Positions 1,957-49,170 of a DNA stretch of 49,603 nt are shown piece after piece. The DNA is taken from NCBI GenBank assembly GCA_045863395.1, contig BTVJ01000056.1, positions 1-49,603 of the forward strand, in the 5' to 3' direction. Origin of the DNA: Myxococcales bacterium. Its GTDB lineage: Bacteria > Myxococcota_A > UBA9042 > JABWCM01 > BTVJ01. The notes under the pieces are model-generated. The model was not told the DNA's origin. It worked only from the letters and a program-made list of their open reading frames with translations, and did no database searches. The position numbers and the translations under genes are program-made. Each line of letters opens with the position of its first letter. Position 1 is the first letter of the stretch.

Positions 1957-3210
1957 TCAGCTCCGCCTTCGCCGCGGCCTGGGAGAGGCTGGGCGGGTCC
2001 CCACCTGCTCCGCCAGCGCGATGATCGGCTTCGGCAGCAGAACCCCTTTGAAGCGGTGGACGGCCACCGGGGCGGTCTCCAGGTCCTCCTGGCTCGCGCG
2101 GAGCCGGTCGCTCACCGCGAGGATGGCGTTGGGGGCACCCCCTCGACCCAGCCCCTTGAGCCGCGGCTCCAGGGAGCCCTTGCGCCAGAACCAGATGATC
2201 TCCAGCAGAGCGACCCGCCCGTCCTCGTGGCGGAGCGCGTAGTCGGGGATCAGTACGGCGCCGCCCCCGAGATCCACGATGCCGGGCTCCTCGTCCAGTG
2301 ACCAGGGCCCCCCGAGCTCCCGGAACCTGTCGGCGAACCATCGCTGCTCCTCGCTCTCCCAGACGCCCCGGTCCCTGACGTGGCTGACGAGGCCGTCGCT
2401 GGGACCGAGGGTCAGGGTGGCCCGGACGCGCTCGGTCCACTGCACCGTCGCCTTCAGGGACCACCCTGACTCCATGTTGAGGACGACGGGCAGAAAGGAG
2501 GCCATCTGGACGCCGTACTTCTGGGACAGGCGGAACAGGGACAGTGGCCCGTCGAGCACGATGCGCCAGCCCTCCCCTTCCCGGTTCACCGTGTGGATGA
2601 GCCCGAAGAAGCGCATGGAGCGGAACAGGGCGCGGTAGCGGGGCTGGGTCTGGCCCTCCACGGTCAGGACGAGCTCGGTCGCCTTGAGCAGCACGGCCTG
2701 GGCAAGCGCGGTGTTGTAGCGGTGGAGCAGCGCGTCGGGCTCCAGGGGCTCGAAGGCCATCAGGCGCTGCTCGTCCTTGAGGTCCGCGTGGAAGGCCTGC
2801 TCCACGTCCGCCGCCGTGACGCCCAGCTCCTTGGCCACCGCCGCGATCAGCTCGTCACGGTGGACGCCGCGCCCCTCGCCCCGGCCCTCCAGGCAGACGG
2901 GGCCCTCGGTGGCGGCCAGCAGGAAGAGCCGGCGCCGCACCTCCACCGGGTCCACCGCCGCGTGGGTGTCGAACTCCGAGCGGTCGAGGAGCACCTTGAC
3001 CAGGCCCCGGTAGAGCACGATGCGGGTGCTGTCACCGAAGACCCCCTCCAGGGCGTCGTCCAGAGCCCACCGCGGCCGCCCCACGTGCTGCTGGAAGATC
3101 TCCACCAGCTCGCGGGCGACCTCCAGCAGCGCGGGGTCATCAGGCCGGACCCACCGGGGGACGACCACCCCCTTGCGCACGTCGGCGCGGACCAGGTCAC
3201 CGGTAAGCAT
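1957..3210 (-). CDS. DUF790 family predicted endonuclease (Bax1-like)
   Basis: MLTGDL N-terminus, RYNTALAQAVL, LDGPLSLF..SQKYG, and a C-terminal PD-(D/E)xK-like IPDY...LLEIIWFW; overlaps the helicase stop. Confidence 0.85.
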   Translation of the reverse strand: MLTGDLVRADVRKGVVVPRWVRPDDPALLEVARELVEIFQQHVGRPRWALDDALEGVFGDSTRIVLYRGLVKVLLDRSEFDTHAAVDPVEVRRRLFLLAATEGPVCLEGRGEGRGVHRDELIAAVAKELGVTAADVEQAFHADLKDEQRLMAFEPLEPDALLHRYNTALAQAVLLKATELVLTVEGQTQPRYRALFRSMRFFGLIHTVNREGEGWRIVLDGPLSLFRLSQKYGVQMASFLPVVLNMESGWSLKATVQWTERVRATLTLGPSDGLVSHVRDRGVWESEEQRWFADRFRELGGPWSLDEEPGIVDLGGGAVLIPDYALRHEDGRVALLEIIWFWRKGSLEPRLKGLGRGGAPNAILAVSDRLRASQEDLETAPVAVHRFKGVLLPKPIIALAEQVGTRPASPRPRRRRS

Positions 3211-4558
3211 CGTGCTGCCTCCGGCGCCAGCTCTGGGCCTCCTCCACCGTGCCCGTCGTGATCACCTCGTAGAGCACCGCCTGCTTGTCCCCGTCGCGGC
3301 GAAGGATACGCCCCAGCCGCTGCACGTGCTCCCTCACCGTGCTGGTCCCGGACAGCACGATGCCCACTGCCGCCGACGGCACGTCCACCCCCTCGTTGAG
3401 CACCCGGCTCGTCACGATGGCGCGCAGCGTGCCATCACGAAAGCGGTCCAGGATCTCCTTGCGCTCCTTCGCGTCGGTCTGGTGGGTGATCGCCGGCACC
3501 AGCAGGGTCCGCGAGATCAGGTAGGCCGTGCGGTTGTCGTTGGTGAAGATCAGCGCGCGGTCCCCATGGTGGTGGCGGAGCAGCGACTCGACAACCCGGA
3601 GCTTCGCACGGGGAGCCTGGGCGATGCCCTTCTGCTCCCGGTGCGCCTGGAAGGCGCGGCGCCCCGCCCGGCTGCGCGACGCCGCCTGCAGGAAGTTGCG
3701 CCAGCCGTCGTGGCCACGAAGCGAGATGCGGTTCTCGTCCACGAACCCGCGGAACAGAGCCCGCGCCTCGTCGTAGCGGGCGCGCTCGTCGCTATCCAGC
3801 TCCACCTCGAGGGTCTCGACGGTGTACTCGGCGAGGATGTCCCCCCGCAGCTCCGTCACGTCCCGCCGGTAGCAGGGCGGGCCCACGAGAGCATCGAGGA
3901 TGGCGTGGGCGCCGTCCTCCCGCTCCAGGGTGGCCGTCAGGCCCAGGCGGAACGGCGCGAGGGAGCCCTCCGCCGCCTGGGAGTAGGCAGGACCCGGCAA
4001 GTGGTGCACCTCGTCGAAGATCAAGAGGCCGAAGCGGTTGCCCAGGCGCTCCAGGTGGATATAGGCGGAGTCGTAGGTGGTGACCGTAACATCCCGGAGG
4101 TCGTAGTTCCCTCCCCCGACGAGCCCCACCTCGATGCCGAAGGCCATGCAGAGGCGGTCGTACCACTGGTTGAGCAGCTCGATGGTCGGCACCACTACGA
4201 GCGTGCTCCTCTGTGCCGCAAGCATGGCAAGCTCCGCCACGTAGCTCTTGCCGGCGCCGGTGGGCAGCACCACGGTTCCACGCCGCCCGGCGGCGACCCA
4301 CGCAGCGACGGCCTCCGTCTGGTGGGGGAACGGCTCCCGGTGGGCGTGGTGGACGAGCGACAGGGTGGAGAAGGCGCGGGCCTCGTCGGTCCAGGGGGCG
4401 CGGGCGCGGTGCAGGGCGGTGGCGACCTCCCTGTAGCAGCGGGCTGGCGCGCGCAGGCGACCGACGCGGGGGTCGACGACGAATCCGTCGGGCAACCACC
4501 CGTCCTCCGGGGTGCCCTCGATGAGCAGCGTTCCCTTGTCCCAGCGCAGAGTGATCAT
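3197..4558 (-). CDS. XPB/Rad25-like superfamily 2 DEAH-type helicase
   Basis: LPTGAGKS (motif I), DEVHH (II), LTAT (III), LNEGVDVP (V), QRLGRILR (VI). Confidence 0.92.
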   Translation of the reverse strand: MITLRWDKGTLLIEGTPEDGWLPDGFVVDPRVGRLRAPARCYREVATALHRARAPWTDEARAFSTLSLVHHAHREPFPHQTEAVAAWVAAGRRGTVVLPTGAGKSYVAELAMLAAQRSTLVVVPTIELLNQWYDRLCMAFGIEVGLVGGGNYDLRDVTVTTYDSAYIHLERLGNRFGLLIFDEVHHLPGPAYSQAAEGSLAPFRLGLTATLEREDGAHAILDALVGPPCYRRDVTELRGDILAEYTVETLEVELDSDERARYDEARALFRGFVDENRISLRGHDGWRNFLQAASRSRAGRRAFQAHREQKGIAQAPRAKLRVVESLLRHHHGDRALIFTNDNRTAYLISRTLLVPAITHQTDAKERKEILDRFRDGTLRAIVTSRVLNEGVDVPSAAVGIVLSGTSTVREHVQRLGRILRRDGDKQAVLYEVITTGTVEEAQSWRRRQHDAYR

Positions 4559-4736
4559 GAGCTGCCGACCCTAACGTGCCTGTGCCCTCGCGTCCAGGCC
4601 CGCCCTCGGGGCCGGCGCGACGGGCGCAACGGGGCGCGTGCTCGTCCCCCTGCGCCCGACGTTGCCCGCGTTCTCGGAGCGCCCCGTCTGTGGCGCTGCG
4701 TACAGCCGGGGTGTATCCTCCCGGGCCGGAGGCGCG

Positions 4737-27690: not shown

Positions 27691-29855
27691 GGTCCCGGCT
27701 CCCGAAGCCAGCCCTCGCGGCCCGCGACCACCGGCACCTGCGAGCGCGCGACGACCCGCTCAGTCAGCTCATCCCCCCGCCGCACCAGCTCGACCAGGTC
27801 CTGGGGCCGGAAGCGCGGACCGAGCCATGTGACGGCGCGCCCGCCTTCCCGGAGCCGCCCTCGCAGCGCCGCTGGGAACCGGGGCAGCGCCGCCCCGAGG
27901 TACAGGCCGTCCAGGTCCTGCGCCTCGGGTCCAACCGAGGGATCCGCGGGGACGACCCGAACATGCGACGGGAGGAGCGCGGCGAGGCGACGGCGCCCGA
28001 GGAAGCCCGCCGTGGTGCCGGCAAGCACCTCCCCTCCGGGCCCGACCAGCGCCGCGAGGAGCGCCGCGACCCAACCGCTCGCTGCGCACAGGTCTGCCAC
28101 CCGGTCCCCGGTGCCGGCCTCCAGCGCGCCCAGCGCGAGGGCGGTGGGGGTGAAGCCGATCCAGCGCGGCGCCTCCCCCTCCCGGGCGGGCTCGTCCCCC
28201 TGGTCCCGGAGCATGGCGGCAGCCTCAGGCACCCCGAGGAATGGCTCCGGGGCGACCGTCAGGAGCACCTCGACGAGCGCCTCGTTGCGCAGGGCGCCCC
28301 GCTCCAGCAGGCGCCGCACGGCCTCCTCCCGGCGCCGCACCCGCTCGTCCCGCACGTGGAGCCCGATGGGGGTGGCGATGTCCAGGGCGACGCTGTCCCG
28401 GGCGGGGGCCGCCTTCTTCAGGATCATGTCCCGGTTCTCGGGGCTCAGGGTACGCACCTGCTCCGCCATGCTGCGCTCGAACACCCGGTCCACGCTGCGC
28501 CCCTGTCCCCGGAACCGACCCGCGATCTCCCGCACCAGAGGGCCGTAGGCGTCGTGCATGAAGCGCACCCGGTCCGCGAAGGACAGCGCGCCGCTCGGAT
28601 CCAGGTGCTCCGCGCGCAGCGGCCCGTCGTACCAGGCCCGCCACCACTCGCGGTGGTGGAACCGCGCCCCGTGGGCCGCCTCCAGCGCGTCCATGGTCTC
28701 GTACACCATGGACCCCGGGTACAGCCGGAAGGGGTCGATGGAGAGCCACCCGCAGGTCTCCCGCGCCGACGTGAACAGGTCGGTCAGGAAGGCGTGGGTC
28801 TCCCGCAGGGTCTCCGGAGTCTCTCCTGGGTGGCCTACGATGACGTTGGTCGCCCAGGTGAGGCCGTGGTCGCGGCTCCGCGCCGCCAATCTCCGAATGG
28901 CCCCCAGATAGCGCTCTGGATCCCGGGTCTTGTTCATGAGGGCGAGCATGGCGGGGCTGCCGCTCTCCAGGCCGATGCCGATGGAGAAGCGCGCCCGCGC
29001 CAGCAGGGCGATGTCCTCGTCGTCCAGGTCGTCGGACCGGGTCAGGGTCCAGAATTGCCGCGGCACGAGCCCGTGGCGCACGATCCCCTCGAGGACGTCG
29101 CGGCGCCACCGGCGCTTGAAGCCGAATAGCGGATCGGCGATGTTGACCACCCAGCGCCCCAGCTCCGTGAAGCGCGCGAGCCGCTTCAGCTCGTCGAGCG
29201 CACGCTCCTCCGACCAGGCGCGCCAGGTGTAGTCGGTCTTTGCGCGCTCCATGCAGAACGTGCAGTGGTAGGGGCACCCCCGCGACAGCACAATCTGGAG
29301 CTTGCGCCCTATCTCATGAGCCCGGGGCCAATATCTCCCCAAGAGGTCCCAGCGCTGGGGGGGCAGCGCGTCGATGGACGGGAGGTTCCGGGGCCCCACG
29401 ATGGGTCCGGGCAGGATCTCGCCCAGACGGCGCCCCCCGAGGAGCCCCTCGACCATCTCACCGAGGGGCACCTCCCCTTCCCCCACCACCACCGCGTCGA
29501 AGGGAGACCCCTCGAACGCGAGATCCCCAGGTCTGGCGCTGGCGTGGTAGCCGCCGGTGACCAGCGGCACGTCCGGGTAGAGCCCCTTGAGGAACCGGCC
29601 GAGCGTCATGACGCGGCGGTAGTCGTAGCTCGAGTAGCAGGAGACGCCAATCAGCAGGAAGGGGCCGAGCTCCTGGAGGGTCCGCTGGAGACCGGCGTGA
29701 TCGCTGGCCTCGTAGCCCAGGTCCAGGATCTCCACACGGGCGCCGGTGCGCTCCTTGACCCACGTCCCGAGGCTCACCAGGTGAGGGAGCCCGAAGTCCA
29801 CGTCCGTCCACTTGAGGATGCCGGGGCTCAACAAGAGGACGGCGGGCCCCCTCAC
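27687..29855 (-). CDS. Cobalamin-binding radical SAM protein fused to a degenerate protein-L-isoaspartate O-methyltransferase (PIMT)-like domain
   Basis: B12 domain IGVSC, VTGGYHAS, VVGEGE; SRGCPYHCTFC; IGLESGS, IVGHPGET; C-terminal VAPEPFL, GDRVADLCAASGWVAALLAALVGPGG, LREGGRAV. GTG at 29855 overlaps the upstream stop. Confidence 0.88.
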   Translation of the reverse strand: MRGPAVLLLSPGILKWTDVDFGLPHLVSLGTWVKERTGARVEILDLGYEASDHAGLQRTLQELGPFLLIGVSCYSSYDYRRVMTLGRFLKGLYPDVPLVTGGYHASARPGDLAFEGSPFDAVVVGEGEVPLGEMVEGLLGGRRLGEILPGPIVGPRNLPSIDALPPQRWDLLGRYWPRAHEIGRKLQIVLSRGCPYHCTFCMERAKTDYTWRAWSEERALDELKRLARFTELGRWVVNIADPLFGFKRRWRRDVLEGIVRHGLVPRQFWTLTRSDDLDDEDIALLARARFSIGIGLESGSPAMLALMNKTRDPERYLGAIRRLAARSRDHGLTWATNVIVGHPGETPETLRETHAFLTDLFTSARETCGWLSIDPFRLYPGSMVYETMDALEAAHGARFHHREWWRAWYDGPLRAEHLDPSGALSFADRVRFMHDAYGPLVREIAGRFRGQGRSVDRVFERSMAEQVRTLSPENRDMILKKAAPARDSVALDIATPIGLHVRDERVRRREEAVRRLLERGALRNEALVEVLLTVAPEPFLGVPEAAAMLRDQGDEPAREGEAPRWIGFTPTALALGALEAGTGDRVADLCAASGWVAALLAALVGPGGEVLAGTTAGFLGRRRLAALLPSHVRVVPADPSVGPEAQDLDGLYLGAALPRFPAALRGRLREGGRAVTWLGPRFRPQDLVELVRRGDELTERVVARSQVPVVAGREGWLREPGP

Positions 29856-30916
29856 GAGACACCCCCGCCACGGCCCGCTGAGACAGACTGGCGCAGGAAG
29901 GGCTCCGGGTCCACCAGAGAACCAAACGCGGCGAATCCGCTCTCCTTGCACCCCCCCTGGCAGGCGCGCTCGAAGCGACAGCCCCGGCACATCGCCGGCA
30001 CGGACCGGGGAAACTCCCGGAGGTAGGGAGACGCCATGATCTCGGCCCAGGGCTGGCGCAGGACGTTCCCGAGCACGTGGCTCGACAGGTTGCAGCTCCG
30101 CACGTTCCCAAGAGGATCGAGCACGATGTTGGGAGACTGACTCCCCACGCTGCAGAACCCGAACTTCACCCAGGAGTAGCGCTCCAGGCGCACGAGGCAG
30201 GGGGGGATCGGCATGGCCGTCGAGACGCGGATGCCCCAAGCGCGCCCGAGCCGCTCCGCGGAGTCCAGATTCTCTTCGATCCGGGCCGCAGACGGGACCA
30301 TGGTGTCGATGGCGCGGGCAGCCGCCCCGGCCGCCGACATGCGGTTGTAGCTGACCGCGCGCACCCCGAGGGCGAAGCAGAGCTCCAGTACGCCCGGGAA
30401 GTCCTCGCAGGAGTCGCGGGTGGCGACGAAGCACACCTGCGCCGGGACACCTGCGTCCTGCAGGTCCACGATGGCGCGGACGGTCTCGTCGAAGCAGCGC
30501 GCGCCCTTGCGGCGGTCGTGGCGGTCCCGGTCGGCGCTGAGCAGCGTGAGCTGGACGGCGCGGACCCCGAGCGACGCAAGCCGCTGCGCCGTCTCGACCG
30601 GCACGTGGCTGCCGTTGGTGATGATCTGCACCGATGGCACCAGCGAGCAGGCACGCTCCACGATACGCAGCGCATCCTTCCGCAGCAGGGGCTCGCCGCC
30701 GGTCAGCGTCAGGTGCTCGGCGCCGCTCCCGCGGACGGCCGTCTCCAGCATGGCGAGGGTGTCGTCGGTGGAGAGCTGCCCCCGTGGGTAGCCGCCCTGC
30801 GGCTCGCCGTCCTTGGCGCCCCACACGTTGTAGCAGTGCCCGCAGGCGTGGTCACAGCCCGTGGTCAGCTCGAAGTCGAGCCGCGGGATGCTCGCCGAGC
30901 CCGACAGGACGCTCAT
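29852..30916 (-). CDS. Radical SAM/SPASM domain protein
   Basis: CDHACGHC, LTGGEPLL, ITNG; SPASM C...GNVRSC...LGNV...CRGC....CQGGC; no N-terminal PqqD/RRE extension. Confidence 0.93.
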   Translation of the reverse strand: MSVLSGSASIPRLDFELTTGCDHACGHCYNVWGAKDGEPQGGYPRGQLSTDDTLAMLETAVRGSGAEHLTLTGGEPLLRKDALRIVERACSLVPSVQIITNGSHVPVETAQRLASLGVRAVQLTLLSADRDRHDRRKGARCFDETVRAIVDLQDAGVPAQVCFVATRDSCEDFPGVLELCFALGVRAVSYNRMSAAGAAARAIDTMVPSAARIEENLDSAERLGRAWGIRVSTAMPIPPCLVRLERYSWVKFGFCSVGSQSPNIVLDPLGNVRSCNLSSHVLGNVLRQPWAEIMASPYLREFPRSVPAMCRGCRFERACQGGCKESGFAAFGSLVDPEPFLRQSVSAGRGGGVS

Positions 30917-31659
30917 GCGCGGGGGCGGTCCCGCAGGCGGGCGAGCAGGTCGGGCGGCAGGGCACCGGACGCCGCCAGCCGGGCGCGGGCCTCGGCGCGG
31001 GCCACCTCGCGGGGCGGCAGCGCAGGCGCAGGGGCCATGGTCGTCTCACCGTCCGATGCGTCGGCCGGTGGCGCGGACAGGCAGGGGCCAATGCCGGAGT
31101 CCTCGGGGCCCACGTCGCTGAGGCAGGGGCCCACGTCCCAGGCGCGGGACAGGCACGGGCCCACGTCGCTCTCGGCATCCGGGCCCGCGTCCCACTCGGG
31201 GGTGAGGCAGGGGCCGACGTATGTGTCACCGCCGTCGCCCGAGTCCGGGCCGGCGTCCCAGCGAGGCTGGAGGCACGGGCCCACGTCCCAGGCGCGGGTC
31301 AGGCACGGGCCCACGTCCTCGTAGGGCATCCCGAGGCAGGGGCCCACGTCCTGCCGCGGCGAGAGGCAGGGGCCGACGTCGTCGATCCGCTGGGACAGGC
31401 ACACCCCTACGTTGGTGTCCATGTCCGCGTCGGGCACATCTGGATCGTAGACCGCGGACAGGCACGTCTGCGCGCAGCCCGTCTCGGTCGTCGTGATGCC
31501 GGCGATGAGGGCCACGGCGGCGAGGACGCTGACCACCGCCCCCGCGACGCCCCCGACGACGGACACCGTGCAGGCTGCGGTCGTCGACAAGGCGAGCAGC
31601 ACCCCGGCGCCGATCAGCAGCCGCCGGCGCCAGCGCTCCATGCGAGAGAATCCGGACAT
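30913..31659 (-). CDS. Membrane-anchored repeat protein with (D)VGPCL cores; putative radical SAM substrate/precursor
   Basis: AGGAGG RBS before ATG 31659; two N-terminal hydrophobic segments, each ending in Cys; 8 GPCL motifs plus VGVCL and QTCL; ATGA overlap with the SPASM gene. Confidence 0.8.
   Translation of the reverse strand: MSGFSRMERWRRRLLIGAGVLLALSTTAACTVSVVGGVAGAVVSVLAAVALIAGITTTETGCAQTCLSAVYDPDVPDADMDTNVGVCLSQRIDDVGPCLSPRQDVGPCLGMPYEDVGPCLTRAWDVGPCLQPRWDAGPDSGDGGDTYVGPCLTPEWDAGPDAESDVGPCLSRAWDVGPCLSDVGPEDSGIGPCLSAPPADASDGETTMAPAPALPPREVARAEARARLAASGALPPDLLARLRDRPRA
31079..31413 (-). repeat. Coding repeat AGGCA(G/C)GGGCC(C/G)ACGTC (= DVGPCL on the minus strand)
   Basis: Copies start at 31079, 31121, 31151, 31205, 31271, 31301, 31334, 31364 and 31397 (degenerate); all spacings (30-66 nt) are multiples of 3. 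Confidence 0.9.
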
Positions 31660-31869
31660 GGGGACCTCCTTGGGGCACAAGTCGCCACTACTATGGACTC
31701 ACGGTCGATGCCTGGTCAATGAACCTCTGCTCCCGGCGACTCGCTCGGTTGCGCCCCACGGGGCACGGCCATCACTGGCGTCCGTTGGGGATGGCAGGAG
31801 TCCGCCGATCCGGGCGCCCTCGACGCCCGCCGGGGCGCCGTCGTAGGATGGCTGCCGGAGGTACCCCCC

Positions 31870-32883
31870 ATGACCAACGTGCTTCGGACGACCGAGACGG
31901 CCTGGACGGACTACAAGAAGGAGCCCGGATTCGGGTGCGACCTGATCTCGCTCCACTCCTTCCCTCTCGTGACCCTGGGCGTGAGCCTGGAGCAGCTCCC
32001 GCCGGGCAACGCGATCTGCCCGCTCCACTACCACATGGTCGAGGAGGAGCACCTCTACGTCCTCGAAGGGACCCTGACCGTCCGTGAGCTGCTCCCGGAC
32101 GGGACCCACCGAACGTTCGACGTCCATGACGGCGAGCTGATCGCCTGGCCAGGGGGCACCCGGATCGCCCACCAGACGCAGAACCGGGGTGATCGCCCCG
32201 CGCGCTTCCTGGCCATCTCGGATACCTGCCCGCAGGAGGTCGCCTTCTACCCGGACAGCGGCAAGGTGCTGCTCCGGGGCGCCGGCATCGGCGTGTTCAC
32301 CGAACGAGGGAAGACGGCGCTCCCGCTGGACGGGCACTTTGCCGCGGCGCGGGCAGCCACGGCGCACCCGGCCACGCCAGTCGCAGACGACGCGCGCCCG
32401 CCCCACGTGGCAGGCCCGGCGCAGGTCCCCGAGCGCGCCCTGGGGCTGGGCGGCTTCGGGCGCCCCCTCGCCCGGGCCGCGGGCGCACAGTCCGTGTTCG
32501 TCAACGTGGACCGCCTCCCGCCGGGCGCCCGCACCCCGGACCTGCACGCCCACCTCGCCGACGAGGAGCTCGTCTACGTGCTGAGCGGCCACCCGACGCT
32601 CCGACAGATCCGCGGGCGGCGCGAGGGGCGCACGCCGGTCTTCGACGCTGCAGCGGAGCGCGTGCCGCTGTCGCCCGGCGACGCGGTCCACTGGGCCCCG
32701 GGCGATCTCGTGGCGCACCAGATCCTGAACGAGACCTCGGAGGACACCCACCTGCTGGTGATCGGCACCGACTGCGCGCGCGACATCGTGCTGTTCCCGG
32801 AGCGCGGCGAGATCTACGCGGCGGTGATCGACACCCTCGGCTCCCTGGGGCACACGGACTACTTCGCGGGCGAGTCGCGCTGA
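31870..32883 (+). CDS. Tandem (bi-)cupin domain protein
   Basis: Two cupin motif sets: HYHMVEEEHLYVLEG...AHQ and HAHLADEELVYVLSG...AHQ; GGAGG RBS. Confidence 0.88.
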   Translation: MTNVLRTTETAWTDYKKEPGFGCDLISLHSFPLVTLGVSLEQLPPGNAICPLHYHMVEEEHLYVLEGTLTVRELLPDGTHRTFDVHDGELIAWPGGTRIAHQTQNRGDRPARFLAISDTCPQEVAFYPDSGKVLLRGAGIGVFTERGKTALPLDGHFAAARAATAHPATPVADDARPPHVAGPAQVPERALGLGGFGRPLARAAGAQSVFVNVDRLPPGARTPDLHAHLADEELVYVLSGHPTLRQIRGRREGRTPVFDAAAERVPLSPGDAVHWAPGDLVAHQILNETSEDTHLLVIGTDCARDIVLFPERGEIYAAVIDTLGSLGHTDYFAGESR

Positions 32884-36261: not shown

Positions 36262-36349
36262 TTCACAATCTGGCGCTGGACCTTCGTTCATGCGCTCTTT
36301 GAGCTGTCTCACGGGTCCCGTTCCGGGGCCGCCTGGACAGGGAGGAACC

Positions 36350-37654
36350 ATGAGCGAGGGACACTACATCGCGCTCTCCCACCACCGGGTCATGCTGCTC
36401 GATCAGGCGCGCATGGACGCCTACGAGGCGGCTGTGCGCGCCGTCGTCCGGCCCGGGGACGTGGTGGTGGATCTGGGCACGGGGACCGGCGTCCTCGCGC
36501 TGTGGGCCGCCCGGGCCGGGGCCCGCAAGGTCTACGCCATCGACCCGGCGCCGATCATCCAGCTCGCCCAGCGGCTCGCAGAGGACAACGAGGGCGGGGA
36601 CCGTGTGGAGTTCATCCAGGCGGACGCGCGGCGGGTCTCACTGCCCGAGCCCGCTGACGTGCTGGTCAGCGAGTGCATGGGCAACTTCTTCGTCACGGAC
36701 GACCTGGCGCCGGTGCTGCGGGACGCGGCCCGCTATCTGAGGCCGGGCGCCCGCGTGGTCCCACGGCGCATCCGCCTCTGGGTGGCGCCCGCCTTCTACC
36801 CCATGCTCGACGACGTGACCTTCTGGACGTCGCCCATCCACGGCCTCGATCTGAGCGGTGCCCGCAGCTACGCGCTCCAGACCACCTACGTGCGCCACGT
36901 GGACCCGGCGCTCCTCGTGGCACCGGCCGCGCGGGTGGCGGACTTTCCCATCCTGGAGTCTCCCGACACGGTGGAGTGCGCCGTCTCGTTCGTCGTGGAC
37001 AGGCGCTGCACCGTCCACGGCCTGGTGGGCTGGTTCGACGCCGAGCTCTCGGACGGCGTCCTGCTCGACACGGCGCCTGGCTCCAACACCCACTGGGCGC
37101 AGACCTTCTTCCCCATCGAGCCGGTCTCCCTCGCCGCGGGTTCCCGGCTGGACGCCCGCCTCCACCTGGAGACGGACGCGGCGTACCGCACCCGCTGGCG
37201 CTGGAGCGCGGAGGTTCGTGATCCGCAGGGACACCTGATCGCTCGCTCCCGACACGACACCAGCGTCCGGCTGCCGCCCTCACGCATCGTGGTCACGGAG
37301 GCCGACCGGGACCACCTCGGCGCGCTCCTGCTTGCGCGACAGGCACAGGAGCTGGACACGTCCGGCCCGCTGCTCGCCGAGCTGGAGCGCGCGACGGTGA
37401 TGTCGGCGGATGACCTCCCGACGGACGTCGTGACCATGAACTCGCGCGTGGCGCTCGAGGATCAGGAGTCCGGCACGCGCGACGAGGTGGCGCTGGTCTA
37501 CCCCCGCGACGAGGACCGCGACGCGGGCCTCGTGTCTGTGTTGAGCCCCCACGGCTGGCGGCTGCTCGGCAAGCGCGTCGGCCAGTCGGTGGTGTGGCAG
37601 GCCCCGTGTGCCCCGCCGCGCCACCTGCGCATCGTGGAGGTCAGGTGGCCGTGA
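36350..37654 (+). CDS. Protein arginine methyltransferase (PRMT)-like enzyme fused to an Rnk/GreA-family domain
   Basis: H..ML.D..R..AY, VVDLGTGTGVL, VSECMG (double-E loop region), GWFD, THW loop; C-terminal IVVTEAD...LLAELERA...DVVTMNSRV...LVYP...VSVLSP.G..LLG..VG of Rnk; GGAGG RBS. Confidence 0.85.
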   Translation: MSEGHYIALSHHRVMLLDQARMDAYEAAVRAVVRPGDVVVDLGTGTGVLALWAARAGARKVYAIDPAPIIQLAQRLAEDNEGGDRVEFIQADARRVSLPEPADVLVSECMGNFFVTDDLAPVLRDAARYLRPGARVVPRRIRLWVAPAFYPMLDDVTFWTSPIHGLDLSGARSYALQTTYVRHVDPALLVAPAARVADFPILESPDTVECAVSFVVDRRCTVHGLVGWFDAELSDGVLLDTAPGSNTHWAQTFFPIEPVSLAAGSRLDARLHLETDAAYRTRWRWSAEVRDPQGHLIARSRHDTSVRLPPSRIVVTEADRDHLGALLLARQAQELDTSGPLLAELERATVMSADDLPTDVVTMNSRVALEDQESGTRDEVALVYPRDEDRDAGLVSVLSPHGWRLLGKRVGQSVVWQAPCAPPRHLRIVEVRWP

Positions 37655-37751
37655 GGGGCTGCGGAAGGAACGCCCGTTGCCGGTGCGGCACCGACCGTCT
37701 ATGCTGCCCCGTGCCGCTCCGTCACGGACTGCCACCATCGGGAGGTGCGGG

Positions 37752-44951: not shown

Positions 44952-45132
44952 CTCGACGGCGCCCGGTGCGGACGCGCAAGACGGTGTATCTCTATTCAGC
45001 CTGCCCCGAGCCGCCGCACCGTTGCGCTCGCGCAGTGGGGGGTGCCTCGCGGCGGAGTGGCACCGATGTATCGCGGCGGCCCTCCGCTCGTAGTGATTCC
45101 GCCGAACTCTCGCCCAATGGACTGGAGGCCCC

Positions 45133-48100
45133 ATGTCACTCCGCAGGCTCGCTCCGCTCTGCGCACTCGCCATGTTCATCGCTGGTTGCTCGGACTCCCC
45201 GCCCGGGGGGACCACCGGTGACGCAGGGGCGGACGAGCCGGCCGACACGGGCGCGGCCGACGCAGGCTCCGGTGATGGCGCCGCTCCGCTGGACGCACCC
45301 GGCGCCGGCGGTCACGCCTGCTCCATCGCCGAGGACTGCGCGGGCCTCTTCCCGGAGCTGCTCCCCTGCGAGGTCGTAGTGTGCGGGGCGGACGGGACCT
45401 GCCGCGTCGACGCCCTGCCGGACGGGTCGTCGTGCAAGGACGGTCTCGCGTGCACCGGCCCCGACTTCTGCATCGGCGGCAAGTGCGGTGGCGGCCCCCT
45501 CAACTGCGAGGATGGCGACCCCTGCACGGCGGACTCCTGTGACTCCAAGGTCGGCTGCGTGCACGTGCCAGCCGATGGCGGCCCCTGCGACGACGGGAAC
45601 CCCTGCACCGAGGGAGACGCCTGTGCCAGCGGTACGTGCACAGGGCCCGTCTCGGTGGCCGGCTGCTGCACCTGGGACGCGGAGTGCACCGACGGCGACC
45701 CTTGCACCGAAGACTCCTGCGTCGGCCACGCCTGCGCCTACACCTACGGCTATGCCCCTTGCGACGACGGCAACCCATGCACGCTCAAGGATCACTGCGA
45801 CGGAGAGGGTGGCTGTGGCGGCGACCTGCTGACCTGTGACGACGGGCACCCCTGTACGACCGACGTGTGCGACCCGGCGACCGGGAGCTGTGTGGCCAGC
45901 CCGGCTCCAGACGGGACCCCGTGCGAGGATGGGAACCCATGCACCACCCCCGACCTGTGCGAGAGCGGCGCGTGCGTGGGCCAGGGCAGCCTCTGCCAGT
46001 GCACGTCGGACGCCGACTGCGCTCCCTTCGAGGACGGCGACCTGTGCAATGGCACACTCCGCTGTGCGAGCTTCGTCTGCCAGGTGGACCCGCTGTCCGT
46101 CATCGCGTGCAATCCCACCGCGGACACGGCCTGCGTCAAGGCCGTGTGCACCGCCGCCACCGGGCAGTGCGCGCCAGCGCCGGTCCCGGGCCAGCCGCCC
46201 TGCGACGACCAGAACCCCTGCACGGTGGACGACTCCTGCGTGAACGGTCTGTGTGTCGGCGCAGCGGGCTCGTGCGACGATGGCAACGAGTGCACCTTCG
46301 ACGGGTGCAGCCCCGTGGACGGGTGCGTTCACGTGCCCCACGCGCTGCCCTGCGACGACGGGGACGCCTGCACGGCCAACGACCAGTGCGGGGCGGGCGT
46401 GTGTGCCGGCGACGCGGTCCCCTGTGACGACGGCAACCCCTGTACGACGGACGGGTGCAATCCGGTGGCCGGGTGCAACACCACGCCGGCGGTTGCACCG
46501 TGCGACGACGGCAACCCCTGCACGGTGGGCGACACCTGCGCGGGTGGAGCCTGCGTCAGCGGTCCCAACACGTGCGAGTGCGTCTCCCACGGAGACTGCG
46601 CCGACAAGGAGGACGGCAACCTGTGCAACGGCACGCTCCGGTGCGAGGGTGGGCAGTGCGAGGTCGATCCGCTGACGGTCGTGACGTGCAACACCACCGG
46701 CGATACGGCGTGCGCGAAGACGACCTGCCTCGCGGCCAGTGGCGCCTGTGTGAAGGCCCCCCTCGCCGACGGCACGAAGTGCAGCGACCTGGACTCTTGC
46801 ACGCTGGGGGACGCGTGCGTCGCGGGCTCGTGTGTCGGGACGGTCGCGTCCTGCGACGACGCCAACCCGTGTACGACCGACGGCTGCGACCCGGCGAAGG
46901 GGTGTGTCAACACGCCCAACACGCAGATCTGCAATGACGGCAACCCCTGCACCGGCAACGACAAGTGCAGCGGCGGGGCGTGCAGCGGCGTCCCGATTGC
47001 GTGCGACGACGGCAACCCATGCACGGTCGATGGCTGCACCCCCGCCAGCGGCTGCACATCCACGCCGGCAGCGAATGGCACACCCTGCAACGACGGGAAC
47101 GTGTGCACCGTCCTGGATGTGTGCGCGGCGGGGGTCTGCGGCGGGGTGCCTGCGTCCTGCGACGACCACAACCCGTGTACGGCGGACACCTGCTCCAACC
47201 CGGCGGGCTGCGCAAACAAGACGGTCGCGAACGGCACACCCTGCGACGACGGCTCGAGCTGCAGCACAGGAGACACATGCCAGGGTGGGGTGTGCGCCGG
47301 CAACCCGCCCTCCTGCGACGACGGCAACCCGTGCACCGTGGACATCTGCGACGCCGTGCTCGGCTGCACGTCCAAGGCCGCGGCCAACGGGACGGCCTGC
47401 TCGGACGGAGACCCCTGCACCGGGGGCGACGCCTGCGACAAAGGCACGTGCAAGGGCGGCGGGCCCATCTGCGAGTGCCAGGTGACCGTGGACTGCGCAG
47501 CGAAGGAGGACGGCAACCTGTGCAACGGGACTCTCGTGTGTGTGGCCAACGCGTGCAAGGTGGACCCGGCGACCGTGGTGACCTGCACGGCGCCCGGCGA
47601 CCCCTGCAAACAGAGCACGTGCGCGCCGGCCACGGGCAAGTGCCAGATTGGGGCAGGCCCGAGCGGCGCGCCCTGCGATGACGGAGACGCCTGCACGACC
47701 AACGACTCCTGCTCGGCGGGGACGTGTGGCGGTCTCCCCAAGGTGTGCAATGACGGCAACCCCTGCACCGCAGACTCGTGCACCGGGGGCGCCTGCACGA
47801 CCAAGCCTGCCTTCGACGGCACCCTCTGCGCCGACGACGGGAACTCCTGCACCCTCGACGTGTGCGCCGCGGGCGCCTGCACGCACAAGGGCCTCGCGGA
47901 CGGCGTCGCCTGCGCGGACGACGGCAACGTCTGCACGGCGGACGCCTGCAAGGCCGGGACCTGCGCCCACACCGCGATCAACGAGGGCTTGCCGTGCCAG
48001 GACGACGGCAACCCCTGCACCTACGACCGCTGCGCCGCGGGCGTCTGCCAGCACGTGTCCAACGACCCGGCGCCGGTGGGCTCCGGCCAGTGCTTCGCCG

Positions 48101-49170
48101 TGGCATCGATCACGGCGGACACGGGGACCGTCAGCGGATCCTTCAGCGACTGCGGAGCGGCCGACCAGTTCACCTACAAGTGCCAGGGCGCCAAGTGCAG
48201 CACGACGGGCGCCATCGACACCTGGCCGTGCGCCGACCCGAGCTTCCTCTACAGCGGCGCAAACACCGGCTATGAGTACGCCTACGCCTTCGTGTCCCCG
48301 GTGGACGGCGTCTGCACGCTCATCGAGTACGAGGAGGGAATCAAGCTCTCCGGGGGCGGGCTGTTCGGGGTCCTCGACTGGTTCATCCTCAGCGGTGGCG
48401 CGTGCGGCGCGGGGGCATGCTTCGACTACATGTGGGAGAACAAGACCAGCGACCCGGTCTGCGGCGGCAAGACATGCTCCTACAAGTCCTTCCCGGTAAC
48501 CGCGGGCCAGTCGTTCACGTTCGTCGCCGACGTCTTCGACGGGGTCAACAGCCACGAAGGCTACACGGTGCCAAAAGGCTGGACCATCGAGGTCCGCTGC
48601 GACGCCAGCAAGAAGCTGCTGCTCAACGAGGACTTCACCGACGGCCAGTGCAGCGGCTGCACCCAGTCGGTGACCGCGGGACCGACCTGCAAGAGCTTCG
48701 GCTGGCACGAGATCGGCGGCTTCTCCACCATGGTCACGGCGATGTACCTGGGCCAGCTCCAGAACAACACGCTGCTGGGCTACGACTGCGGCGCCACGAC
48801 CGCCACGCTGACGTTCCCTTCGGTCGCCCTTCCCTCGAACGCCACCTCCTGTACCCTGAGCTTCGACTGGTTCGCGAGCCTGGACCCGGCCAACGACGGC
48901 GACTGCGTGAACGACATCGTGACGGTGATGCTCAAGGTGGGGGGAGGCGCAGCGCAGCCGGTCGCGGGCAAGCCGTGTGTACCCCTCATGTCTGGGTCGA
49001 ACCCGATTGGATCGAGCTCGCAGCCCAACGCGCTGACCATGTCCTACGACATCACCGCCTCGAAGGGGACCACGGTGACGGCCTCGCTCGCCTGGAGCGC
49101 CAACGCGACGGCGAACAACGGGCTCGGCGTGATCATCGACAACGTGAAGATCAGTTGCAGCGTGCCGTGA
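45133..49170 (+). CDS. Giant Cys-rich repeat lipoprotein (CDDGNPCT..D.C repeats) with non-repeat C-terminal domains
   Basis: GGAGG RBS; FIAGC lipobox; more than 20 C(D/N)DG(N/D)xCT repeats over about 900 aa; beta-rich C-terminus ending IIDNVKI. Confidence 0.9.
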   Translation: MSLRRLAPLCALAMFIAGCSDSPPGGTTGDAGADEPADTGAADAGSGDGAAPLDAPGAGGHACSIAEDCAGLFPELLPCEVVVCGADGTCRVDALPDGSSCKDGLACTGPDFCIGGKCGGGPLNCEDGDPCTADSCDSKVGCVHVPADGGPCDDGNPCTEGDACASGTCTGPVSVAGCCTWDAECTDGDPCTEDSCVGHACAYTYGYAPCDDGNPCTLKDHCDGEGGCGGDLLTCDDGHPCTTDVCDPATGSCVASPAPDGTPCEDGNPCTTPDLCESGACVGQGSLCQCTSDADCAPFEDGDLCNGTLRCASFVCQVDPLSVIACNPTADTACVKAVCTAATGQCAPAPVPGQPPCDDQNPCTVDDSCVNGLCVGAAGSCDDGNECTFDGCSPVDGCVHVPHALPCDDGDACTANDQCGAGVCAGDAVPCDDGNPCTTDGCNPVAGCNTTPAVAPCDDGNPCTVGDTCAGGACVSGPNTCECVSHGDCADKEDGNLCNGTLRCEGGQCEVDPLTVVTCNTTGDTACAKTTCLAASGACVKAPLADGTKCSDLDSCTLGDACVAGSCVGTVASCDDANPCTTDGCDPAKGCVNTPNTQICNDGNPCTGNDKCSGGACSGVPIACDDGNPCTVDGCTPASGCTSTPAANGTPCNDGNVCTVLDVCAAGVCGGVPASCDDHNPCTADTCSNPAGCANKTVANGTPCDDGSSCSTGDTCQGGVCAGNPPSCDDGNPCTVDICDAVLGCTSKAAANGTACSDGDPCTGGDACDKGTCKGGGPICECQVTVDCAAKEDGNLCNGTLVCVANACKVDPATVVTCTAPGDPCKQSTCAPATGKCQIGAGPSGAPCDDGDACTTNDSCSAGTCGGLPKVCNDGNPCTADSCTGGACTTKPAFDGTLCADDGNSCTLDVCAAGACTHKGLADGVACADDGNVCTADACKAGTCAHTAINEGLPCQDDGNPCTYDRCAAGVCQHVSNDPAPVGSGQCFAVASITADTGTVSGSFSDCGAADQFTYKCQGAKCSTTGAIDTWPCADPSFLYSGANTGYEYAYAFVSPVDGVCTLIEYEEGIKLSGGGLFGVLDWFILSGGACGAGACFDYMWENKTSDPVCGGKTCSYKSFPVTAGQSFTFVADVFDGVNSHEGYTVPKGWTIEVRCDASKKLLLNEDFTDGQCSGCTQSVTAGPTCKSFGWHEIGGFSTMVTAMYLGQLQNNTLLGYDCGATTATLTFPSVALPSNATSCTLSFDWFASLDPANDGDCVNDIVTVMLKVGGGAAQPVAGKPCVPLMSGSNPIGSSSQPNALTMSYDITASKGTTVTASLAWSANATANNGLGVIIDNVKISCSVP

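Follow-up and report, generated by a model that had tools for sequence, protein, structure and literature searches.

The window, a stretch of 49,603 nt of Myxococcales DNA, carries on its forward strand a gene (36350..37654, +) that encodes a type-I-PRMT-like methyltransferase (residues 1-310) fused to an Rnk module (residues 311-434). As the initial annotation had claimed, both parts lie in one uninterrupted frame of 434 codons, running from the ATG at 36350 to a TGA stop (37652-37654). A ribosome-binding site, GGAGG (36341..36345, +), could be read from the sequence about 4-8 nt upstream of the ATG, and the orthologues start at the same position (MSEGHY/MSQGHY). From its N-terminus, the protein consists of (i) a PRMT catalytic core, residues 1-290 (36350..37219, +), delimited by Pfam, AlphaFold2 and Foldseek and comprising a Rossmann SAM-binding domain, a dimerisation arm (approximately residues 150-178) and a beta-barrel, (ii) the PRMT C-terminal tail DPQGHLIARSRHDTSVRLPP (37220..37279, +), (iii) the Rnk N-terminal short coiled coil, residues 311-352 (37280..37405, +; Pfam Rnk_N), and (iv) a Gre-family C-terminal globular domain, residues 353-434 (37406..37651, +; Pfam GreA_GreB), without the usual YQPE tail. 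The underlying Pfam matches were Methyltransf_25 (residues 39-133), PRMT_C (residues 154-274; 48.3 bits, cut-off 27), Rnk_N (residues 312-350; 25.8 bits, cut-off 23.7), and the GreA_GreB C-terminal domain (residues 357-431; 62.8 bits, cut-off 26.9).

All the PRMT motifs that the initial annotation had named were found in their places, namely the MLxDxxR helix (MLLDQAR, residues 15-21), motif I VVVDLGTGTGVL, which is of the VxDxGxGxG type and forms the SAM-binding glycine loop (residues 38-49; 36461..36496, +), the SECMG or double-E loop SECMGNFFVTDD (residues 107-118; 36668..36703, +), the GWFD segment of the beta-barrel (residues 227-230), and the THW loop (T247-H248-W249; 37088..37096, +). 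Comparison of 264 PRMT-like sequences showed that D41, G43, G45 and G47 are conserved in 257 to 261 of them, and R21 is likewise retained in the window protein. The column of the post-I acidic residue, D65, holds E in 216 sequences and D in 45, while that of Glu108 holds E in 226 and D in 36; in the THW loop, T occurs in 195 sequences, H in 169 and W in 244. The double-E loop carries Asp117 instead of the second Glu, and this residue, which had also been pointed out beforehand, does align with the second Glu of CARM1 and plant PRMT4.2. In type I PRMTs the two glutamates of this loop hold the guanidinium group; Asp117 is still acidic, although a Glu to Asp change at this position lowers the activity of PRMT1. 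Asp is as common as Glu there among the 264 relatives (114 versus 109), so Asp117 is probably no sign of decay.

The fold is in line with these motifs. A sequence search against solved structures retrieved CARM1, PRMT1 and PRMT4.2 with E values of 1e-24 to 6e-29 over residues 6-267, and Foldseek matched the PRMT model, across its entire core, to PRMT1 (1ori; TM 0.84, rmsd 2.8 A) and to CARM1 (E 2e-29), identity to the eukaryotic PRMTs being 24-29% in the structural alignments. Block-mean pLDDT of the AlphaFold2 model was at least 91 across residues 11-300, except for one block at 83, and the two helices of the arm were modelled at residues 154-160 and 169-175. Having the SAM-binding motif I, the post-I acidic residue, the THW loop and the beta-barrel with its arm, the PRMT module looks catalytically intact; it would be predicted to methylate arginine, and is probably dimeric through the retained arm.

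For the C-terminal part, the search against solved structures returned E. coli Rnk (3bmb; E 6.9e-16, residues 312-433). In the full-length model, built from a PRMT-rich alignment, the Rnk part reached a pLDDT of only ~36-70, so that no arrangement of the two domains relative to each other was deduced from it; the Rnk part was folded on its own alignment. This separate model (pLDDT 86.7; helices at domain residues 13-28 and 35-42) shows the short N-terminal coiled coil and the Gre-type C-terminal globular domain of Rnk; it matched 2pn0 with a TM of 0.90 (rmsd 2.0 A) and 3bmb with an E value of 1.5e-10 (TMq 0.75), while scoring only ~0.5 against GreA, GreB and Gfh1, so that the best matches are Rnk-type and not the long-coiled-coil Gre/Gfh1 structures. 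In an alignment of 30 rows the window Rnk agrees with every invariant column, as it must, its own sequence being one of the rows, and it deviates at two nearly invariant positions (PTD versus PPD, and GWRLLG versus GxALLG). The module had been described as a complete Rnk, and this holds insofar as Rnk_N and GreA_GreB both exceed their Pfam cut-offs. It does not hold for the C-terminus: the protein ends ~10 residues short of the YQPE...G tail that is found in the orthologue P0003 and in the eight stand-alone Rnk frames compared, none of the other reading frames restores this tail, and the match to the NCBIfam Rnk model PRK05753 (104.1 bits; profile positions 5-126 of 137) stays just below the equivalog cut-off of 109.

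As the genome, with its 186 contigs, is an assembly of the metagenome type, the fusion might have been an assembly chimera or a sequencing artefact, and the initial annotation had itself called for a check of the region around 37260-37290. The junction at ~37280 is bridged by contigs from three studies other than the window's own: X5, from an RNA library, covers 36666-37404 with 0 differences, X7, a 2191-nt DNA contig, covers the whole gene with 1 difference, and X13, from the third study, covers 37235-37750; no indel or joint was reported across the junction in any of the three. The presence of X5 in an RNA library is not in itself proof of transcription, and a further RNA library, X16, gave no contig over 37256-37307 and is hence uninformative on the junction. 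The samples that contain the gene come from sludge and wastewater. GC3 is uniform over both halves, at 0.926 for codons 1-310 and 0.935 for codons 311-434. Moreover, the fusion recurs in relatives. P0003, a 444-aa orthologue that is encoded on a contig of 42 kb and is 80% identical overall, has the matching architecture, with an identity of 86.9% in the PRMT core, 61.9% in Rnk_N and 67.1% in the Gre C domain, and junction residues 298-316 are identical between P0001 and P0003; two more fused variants, P0002 (99.8% identity) and P0321 (97.5%), were also found. With the bridging contigs, the orthologue and the uniform GC3, an artefact is effectively refuted, and the fusion is maintained under selection in two diverged lineages. 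No linker has been added between the modules, since the stand-alone relatives, too, end in the PRMT tail that here precedes the Rnk part; P0004, for example, ends in FEHDTTDRFEPR.

The PRMT-Rnk fusion is very rare, having been found in one small Myxococcota lineage only, and its selective value is uncertain for this reason. It was not found in 40 relatives or in GTDB species representatives, and no other cluster carried it among the best 150 matches from 1.84 billion representatives. Scanning of JGI metagenomes with window-specific peptides yielded no further fused relatives, and with conserved peptides a PRMT match was seen in none of the best 80 of 485 confirmed stretches. The three fused rows cluster together in a quick tree (SH-aLRT 99), surrounded by stand-alone PRMTs, which suggests that the fusion arose once, within the clade of stand-alone 311-aa PRMTs. 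The PRMT family itself is far from rare in bacteria, and the statement that THW-loop PRMTs are mainly eukaryotic could not be upheld: of 201 genomes sampled from the window's phylum, 28 have PRMT_C genes, which are also present in large bacterial clusters across several phyla. A literature search, which covered few subscription journals, found no paper on PRMT-Rnk, GNAT-Rnk or myxobacterial PRMTs.

The genome encodes a separate GreA, a separate GreB and a third Gre-like protein, its sole Rnk module being that of the window gene, which also accounts for the genome's single Rnk_N match. Its RpoC is 1371 aa long, with residues 590-820 taken as the beta-prime rim-helix/funnel segment and the rim helices themselves placed at about residues 630-700. 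Neither the gene neighbours nor synteny revealed a link to transcription, tblastn of ten window neighbours against 68 loci detected no shared neighbour, and no Rnk gene lay beside a stand-alone PRMT in any of 13 loci (flanks up to 8 kb). The conserved neighbours of the stand-alone PRMTs, namely a glycosyltransferase, a polysaccharide deacetylase, a radical-SAM protein, an FKBP, a ResB-like protein and a Dicty_CTDC repeat protein, point to no substrate, and the nearest stand-alone relatives have no conserved peptide-cluster neighbours. Within the window, a radical-SAM/SPASM gene is located ~5 kb upstream on the opposite strand; PqqD, lasso and other peptide-maturation gene sets were absent from ten ORFs scanned between 29852 and 44951 and from twelve further ORFs. 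A crude six-frame scan of the genome (71% GC) for RG/RGG-rich stretches returned 49 open frames, mostly off-frame noise. Three of them were checked and corresponded to a weak PHP-domain match, an SLT/TPR protein and an acyltransferase, none of which is linked to RNA polymerase (RNAP). The promoter scan (0 sites) and the terminator scan (2 sites, one lying within the gene, where 0.9 were expected) are uninformative at this GC content.

What the Rnk module may do has to be judged from E. coli Rnk, which binds RNAP in competition with GreA, GreB and DksA, its coiled coil being too short to attain the RNAP active centre; in vitro, Rnk-type factors displace Gre factors and DksA and have been proposed to be anti-Gre/anti-DksA factors (PMC4598747). 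E. coli Rnk is the only Rnk for which binding is documented, and RNAP is the only documented partner, while the protein's own function is listed as unknown and its name is traced to an effect on nucleoside diphosphate kinase (PMC4598747). By homology to E. coli Rnk, the window module would be expected to bind RNAP. With middling confidence, we favour the reading that the window protein is an RNAP-tethered protein arginine methyltransferase, for which RNAP binding, activity and substrate are all predicted. The globular domain of Rnk would dock where the secondary channel of RNAP opens, and the methyltransferase, being joined without a linker to the Rnk N-terminus, is proposed to be held just outside the channel. 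There it could methylate an arginine that lies on a flexible part of either RNAP or a factor bound to RNAP, and so alter transcription; the bound PRMT-Rnk protein might also exclude Gre factors from RNAP. The RNAP-targeting interpretation, which the initial annotation had already advanced, is in part supported, because (i) the fusion is genuine and has been maintained by selection in two diverged lineages, (ii) the Rnk part retains its invariant residues and fold, (iii) the PRMT part retains its SAM-binding and catalytic motifs and fold, (iv) binding of Rnk to RNAP is documented (PMC4598747), and (v) independent GNAT-Rnk proteins have the same domain order. We count against it the missing tail, the sub-cut-off Rnk score, the two departures in Rnk and Asp117, as well as the peptide-tailoring link of bacterial PRMTs, the lack of transcription-linked neighbours, the narrow lineage, and the origin of the Rnk name in an effect on nucleoside diphosphate kinase.

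In one review, the bacterial proteins most closely related to PRMTs are placed, as 'peptide methylases', in peptide secondary-metabolite operons (PMC3417536). These relatives, together with the spread of PRMT_C in bacteria, make a peptide or another non-RNAP substrate a live rival: the substrate of the PRMT module would be a peptide natural product or some unrelated protein, which has been proposed for many bacterial PRMT-like enzymes, and Rnk would have another role, for instance with a different partner or through the nucleoside-diphosphate-kinase link. The radical-SAM/SPASM gene ~5 kb away on the other strand also fits such a role, as does P0181, a PRMT-PqqD fusion, PqqD being a peptide-recognition domain. 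We nevertheless regard a substrate of this kind as unlikely, given that no peptide-maturation set was present in the ORFs scanned, that the nearest stand-alone relatives lack conserved peptide-cluster neighbours, that the GNAT-Rnk fusions suggest a theme of protein modification, and that the sole documented Rnk partner is RNAP (PMC4598747).

Alternatively, Rnk might be the effector, as a secondary-channel blocker of the anti-Gre/anti-DksA type, with a regulatory or structural PRMT domain through which affinity, valency (as a PRMT dimer) or activity would respond to SAM/SAH, RNAP itself being left unmethylated. The displacement of Gre and DksA by Rnk-type factors in vitro (PMC4598747), the retained dimerisation arm and the replacement of the second catalytic Glu by Asp would all accommodate this arrangement. 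It appears quite improbable to us, as the PRMT part is the more conserved half (86.9% versus 62-67%), the SAM-binding and catalytic-loop positions, including THW, are all kept, which is unexpected for a mere scaffold, and Asp117 is as frequent as Glu among the 264 relatives. A near-neutral gene fusion, in which two independent functions stay uncoupled, would agree with the confinement to one small lineage and with the absence of adjacent PRMT and Rnk genes at the 13 stand-alone loci (flanks up to 8 kb). Against it, the junction peptide is identical despite a 20% residue difference between the orthologues, no linker exists that could decay, the two halves are intact, and the order of enzyme then Rnk recurs independently with GNAT; we consider this uncoupled state quite improbable as well.

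As a natural joining of the two families, PRMT-Rnk serves as a 'Rosetta stone', pointing to RNAP as a concrete and testable candidate target of an arginine methyltransferase in bacteria. We raise as a tentative and rather doubtful extension that Rnk is a general adaptor bringing protein-modification writers, a methyltransferase here and an acetyltransferase in Devosia, to the rim of the secondary channel. In that case, arginine methylation would regulate RNAP in bacteria, or a factor that binds RNAP. Eukaryotic PRMTs methylate RNA polymerase II and SPT5, and such regulation would be the bacterial counterpart. Together, PRMT-Rnk and GNAT-Rnk suggest that the docking site at the secondary channel delivers enzymes of covalent modification in addition to transcript-cleavage or ppGpp co-factors. 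Were this true, the long-orphan Rnk family would gain a function, and a new layer of bacterial transcription control would come with an experimental route to the two orphan families. Bacterial PRMT-like enzymes are common, functional tests of them were not found in the literature searched, and the GNAT-Rnk version occurs in cultured strains (Devosia, Paradevosia).

Compared with the eukaryotic type I PRMTs (PRMT1, CARM1/PRMT4, PRMT2 and PRMT6), the window protein, which belongs to a bacterium, shares the core of Rossmann domain and beta-barrel with dimerisation arm, as well as motif I, the first Glu of the double-E loop, the THW loop and the MLxDxxR helix. It differs in having Asp where they have the second loop Glu, in what we take to be a reduction of the N-terminal YFxxY helix of PRMT1 to a single aromatic residue, and in carrying, in place of the eukaryotic N-terminal targeting domains, a C-terminal bacterial Rnk module of the RNAP-binding type. 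The stand-alone Myxococcota PRMT-like proteins (~311 aa, e.g. P0004-P0012), which the quick tree places as sister to the fused clade, are 60-67% identical over residues 1-310, have the same SECMGNFFVTD(D/E) loop and HDT..RF C-terminal tail, and stop where the Rnk module of the window protein starts. Automatic annotation usually names them SAM-dependent or 'L11' methyltransferases.

With Rnk of E. coli (3bmb) and Nitrosomonas europaea (2pn0), the window module has in common the short coiled coil followed by the Gre-type C-terminal domain, at 34-35% identity, and is distinguished by its position behind a 310-aa enzyme and by the lack of the last ~10 residues. NCBIfam calls this family (PRK05753) 'nucleoside diphosphate kinase regulator'. 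Among 23 Rnk-containing proteins of 238-760 aa, 17 proved to be a GNAT acetyltransferase followed by Rnk, in the same N-to-C order as in the window. These proteins of Devosia and Paradevosia (P0126-P0142) likewise place a modifying enzyme before Rnk_N and the Gre C domain; unlike the PRMT of the window, their enzyme is acetyl-CoA dependent and of the Acetyltransf_3 type, and they come from another phylum. GNAT-Rnk appears to be a fusion independent of PRMT-Rnk. Their NCBI name is 'bifunctional GNAT family N-acetyltransferase/nucleoside diphosphate kinase regulator', and some are from cultured strains. Bulky N-terminal additions also have a precedent in the Gre-family models PRK14720 (906 positions) and PRK06330 (718 positions; named 'transcript cleavage factor/unknown domain fusion protein'), to whose C-terminal ends the window Gre C domain aligns; in contrast to the window protein, they are of the GreA type, their coiled coil is long, and their extensions have no assigned enzymatic function. 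Finally, other bacterial PRMT-like proteins bear C-terminal TPR or PqqD modules, P0181 being of the latter kind, and the C-terminus of the bacterial PRMT-like proteins thus looks like a swappable targeting module, occupied in the window protein by Rnk.

The fusion gene (36350-37654, plus strand) consists of one uninterrupted frame of 434 codons, with a GGAGG ribosome-binding site 4 nt 5' of its ATG, and GC3 is 0.926 over codons 1 to 310 and 0.935 over codons 311 to 434. Pfam placed Methyltransf_25 at residues 39-133, PRMT_C at 154-274 (48.3 bits; cut-off 27), Rnk_N at 312-350 (25.8 bits; cut-off 23.7) and the Gre C-terminal domain at 357-431 (62.8 bits; cut-off 26.9), and residues 311-432 matched the NCBIfam Rnk model PRK05753 (E = 4.9e-30) with 104.1 bits, below its cut-off of 109. 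Sequence searches against solved structures matched residues 6-267 to CARM1, PRMT1, PRMT4.2 and related enzymes (E = 1e-24 to 6e-29), and residues 312-433 to E. coli Rnk (3bmb; E = 6.9e-16). All the motifs named in the initial annotation were found where it had placed them. The HDT..R(F/L) tail ahead of the Rnk module is also the C-terminus of stand-alone PRMTs, so the two modules are joined end to start, without a linker.

The fusion claimed from the contig sequence proved to be real. Its junction, at about nucleotide 37280, is bridged by assembled contigs from sequencing runs of other studies, with no indels or joints reported in them: (i) an RNA-library contig (run X5) spans 36666-37404 with 0 differences, (ii) a 2191-nt contig (run X7) spans the whole gene with 1 difference, and (iii) a contig from a third study (run X13) spans 37235-37750; run X16 has a hole at the junction and is uninformative there. 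The protein database also contains an 80%-identical orthologue with the same architecture, encoded on a 42-kb contig (P0003, 444 aa). Identity between the two proteins is 86.9% in the PRMT core, 61.9% in Rnk_N and 67.1% in the Gre C domain, and the junction-spanning residues 298-316 are identical. Near-identical fused variants (P0002 and P0321) lie on further contigs. That an assembly chimera explains the architecture is exceedingly improbable.

The model of the PRMT half has a block-mean pLDDT of at least 91 across residues 11-300, with the exception of one block at 83, and superposes on PRMT1 (1ori; TM 0.84, rmsd 2.8 Å), as well as on CARM1, PRMT2 and PRMT6, with about 315 columns aligned and the dimerisation arm among them. 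Columns were counted in the 264 PRMT-like sequences gathered in this analysis and read by the known roles of PRMT1 residues. R21 is the common residue of its column (253/264), as are D41, G43, G45 and G47 (257-261 of 264), while T247, H248 and W249 are shared by 195, 169 and 244 sequences, respectively. Position 108, E in the fusion protein, is E in 226 and D in 36 of the 264. The second loop glutamate position is occupied by Asp117 and, because 114 of the 264 sequences have D in this column and 109 have E, the alignment identifies the aspartate as a family trait rather than a sign of decay.

Folded with 30 Rnk sequences, the Rnk module gave a model (pLDDT 86.7) which resembles the Rnk-type structure 2pn0 (TM 0.90, rmsd 2.0 Å) and E. 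coli Rnk (3bmb; E = 1.5e-10); the long coiled coils of Gre and Gfh1 proteins keep the TM to them at only about 0.5. The module has all invariant columns of the 30-row alignment, which contains the fusion's own sequence. It carries PTD where the Rnk family has PPD (variant P0321 has PPD) and GWRLLG where the family has GxALLG. The protein ends in ...IVEVRWP (37631-37654), without the C-terminal YQPE...G tail of about 10 residues that is present in P0003 and in eight stand-alone Rnk frames inspected among loci L105-L171. No other reading frame at the end of the gene restores this tail, and the stop codon is the same in four runs.

Of the 23 proteins with an Rnk domain and a length of 238-760 aa, 2 were PRMT-Rnk, 17 were GNAT acetyltransferase-Rnk, and 4 had N-terminal extensions without a Pfam match. 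GNAT-Rnk thus named is a second enzyme-Rnk architecture (P0126-P0142, about 303 aa; cluster members P0322-P0333), with an N-terminal GNAT of the Acetyltransf_3 type at residues 9-150, Rnk_N at 177-214 and the Gre C domain at 221-292. Its hosts are Devosia and Paradevosia, cultured strains with complete genomes among them, and NCBI names it 'bifunctional GNAT family N-acetyltransferase/nucleoside diphosphate kinase regulator'. When 22 longer bacterial PRMT-like proteins were scanned, 10 had C-terminal TPR matches, mostly under Pfam cut-offs (nine of the ten being P0154, P0155, P0164, P0165, P0167, P0179, P0217, P0221 and P0278), and one (P0181, 498 aa) had a C-terminal PqqD peptide-recognition domain (66.5 bits). 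The GNAT-Rnk, PRMT-TPR and PRMT-PqqD proteins indicate that the PRMT core takes swappable C-terminal recognition modules, and Rnk N-terminal enzymes.

Other Rnk arrangements were also seen. At L105:2974-3801 (plus strand) and in P0124, the Rnk module follows about 140 residues that look, by eye, hydrophobic and membrane-spanning; these modules are possibly membrane-anchored. Tandem or closely spaced Rnk-like matches, two or three per locus, occur at L035, L039-L041, L045, L059 and L069, from Planctomycetota, Omnitrophota and Nitrospiraceae. At L137:3637-5709 (plus strand), a 691-aa open frame continues into an Rnk module that shares 47% identity with the fusion's; this may be another fusion, or a pair of genes sharing one GC-rich frame without an intervening stop.

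In a search of 5.8 billion proteins, 2 of the best 120 matches contained both halves (P0002 and P0003), the next-best among these 120 being stand-alone PRMT-like proteins from Myxococcota MAGs, with lengths of about 311 aa and 60-67% identity. When 1.84 billion representatives were searched exhaustively, the one match over residues 1-434 among the best 150 was the fusion protein's own cluster, and the best-scoring stretch stopped at query residue 331 or earlier in 148 of the 149 others listed; the match to P0202 extends to residue 353, and Pfam found no Rnk or Gre domain in P0202. The fusion was found in none of 40 relatives searched; a stand-alone orthologue of the PRMT was present in 11 of them (E ≤ 3e-59), with Rnk-like genes on other contigs. 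GTDB species representatives yielded 14 loci with a PRMT alone, 40 with an Rnk alone and not one with the pair; no Rnk lay near the stand-alone PRMT at 13 loci with flanks of up to 8 kb, and of 485 confirmed JGI metagenome loci, the best 80 were free of PRMT matches. The nearest stand-alone Rnk is just 48-52% identical to the fusion's module. In a midpoint-rooted tree of 55 PRMT domains from a quick maximum-likelihood search, the three fused sequences cluster together (SH-aLRT 99), with stand-alone enzymes branching around them. This grouping, the database rarity and the lack of PRMT/Rnk adjacency make the fusion look like a single derived event, not one from neighbouring genes.

In the source genome (97% complete, 186 contigs), the fusion gene is the sole match to both Rnk_N and PRMT_C, and there are a separate GreA gene, a GreB gene and a third Gre-like gene. 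Of 201 genomes sampled from the phylum, 28 have PRMT_C genes, and the ESM Atlas holds large bacterial PRMT_C clusters from several phyla, mostly mislabelled as L11 methyltransferases. The fusion gene has a STAND-type AAA/TPR protein upstream and is followed by two putative lipoproteins and UppP. Beyond the STAND ATPase on the upstream side, 29852-32883 contains a radical-SAM/SPASM gene, an ORF without a Pfam match and a double-cupin gene, with no precursor peptide or PqqD seen around them. A minus-strand pair at 1960-4570 comprises an XPB/ERCC3-like helicase, which carries an XPB damage-recognition domain, and an adjacent DUF790 protein. Downstream, at a distance of 7.5 kb from the fusion, 45097-49167 (plus strand) encodes a very large protein that carries cysteine-rich Dicty_CTDC repeats; giant repeat proteins like it stand directly upstream of stand-alone PRMTs at four loci (L018:1298-7018 and its counterparts at L019, L026 and L028), a proximity that could be chance in this phylum.

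The Gre C domain contacts the beta-prime rim helices of RNAP. As described in the review PMC4598747, Rnk binds RNAP, its coiled coil is too short for reaching the RNAP active centre, and it has no known function, its deletion being without phenotype in normal growth conditions; such properties are those of a pure docking module. In the predicted models, the first Rnk strand (IVV, residues 313-315) lies directly before the coiled coil, beside the globular domain, so the attached methyltransferase should sit outside the RNAP channel mouth. The Rnk module would then tether the PRMT to RNAP, and the enzyme, held at that place, would methylate an arginine on RNAP or on an RNAP-bound factor. To this reading of the protein as a putative RNAP-tethered arginine methyltransferase we give an even chance.

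That the substrate is a peptide or something else is unlikely, with the PRMT-PqqD fusion P0181 in its favour, as well as a review that places the nearest bacterial PRMT relatives as 'peptide methylases' (PMC3417536). None of the fusion gene's neighbours hints at a role in transcription or at a peptide-maturation cluster. Somewhat less probable is a SAM-responsive channel blocker, and a fusion of two functionally uncoupled modules is slightly more doubtful still. A literature search, with most subscription journals outside its reach, found no paper on the PRMT-Rnk architecture. Returning to the tethered methyltransferase, eukaryotic PRMTs methylate RNA polymerase II and SPT5. Both the PRMT and the Rnk families are already known; their combination, and the idea suggested by it, are new.
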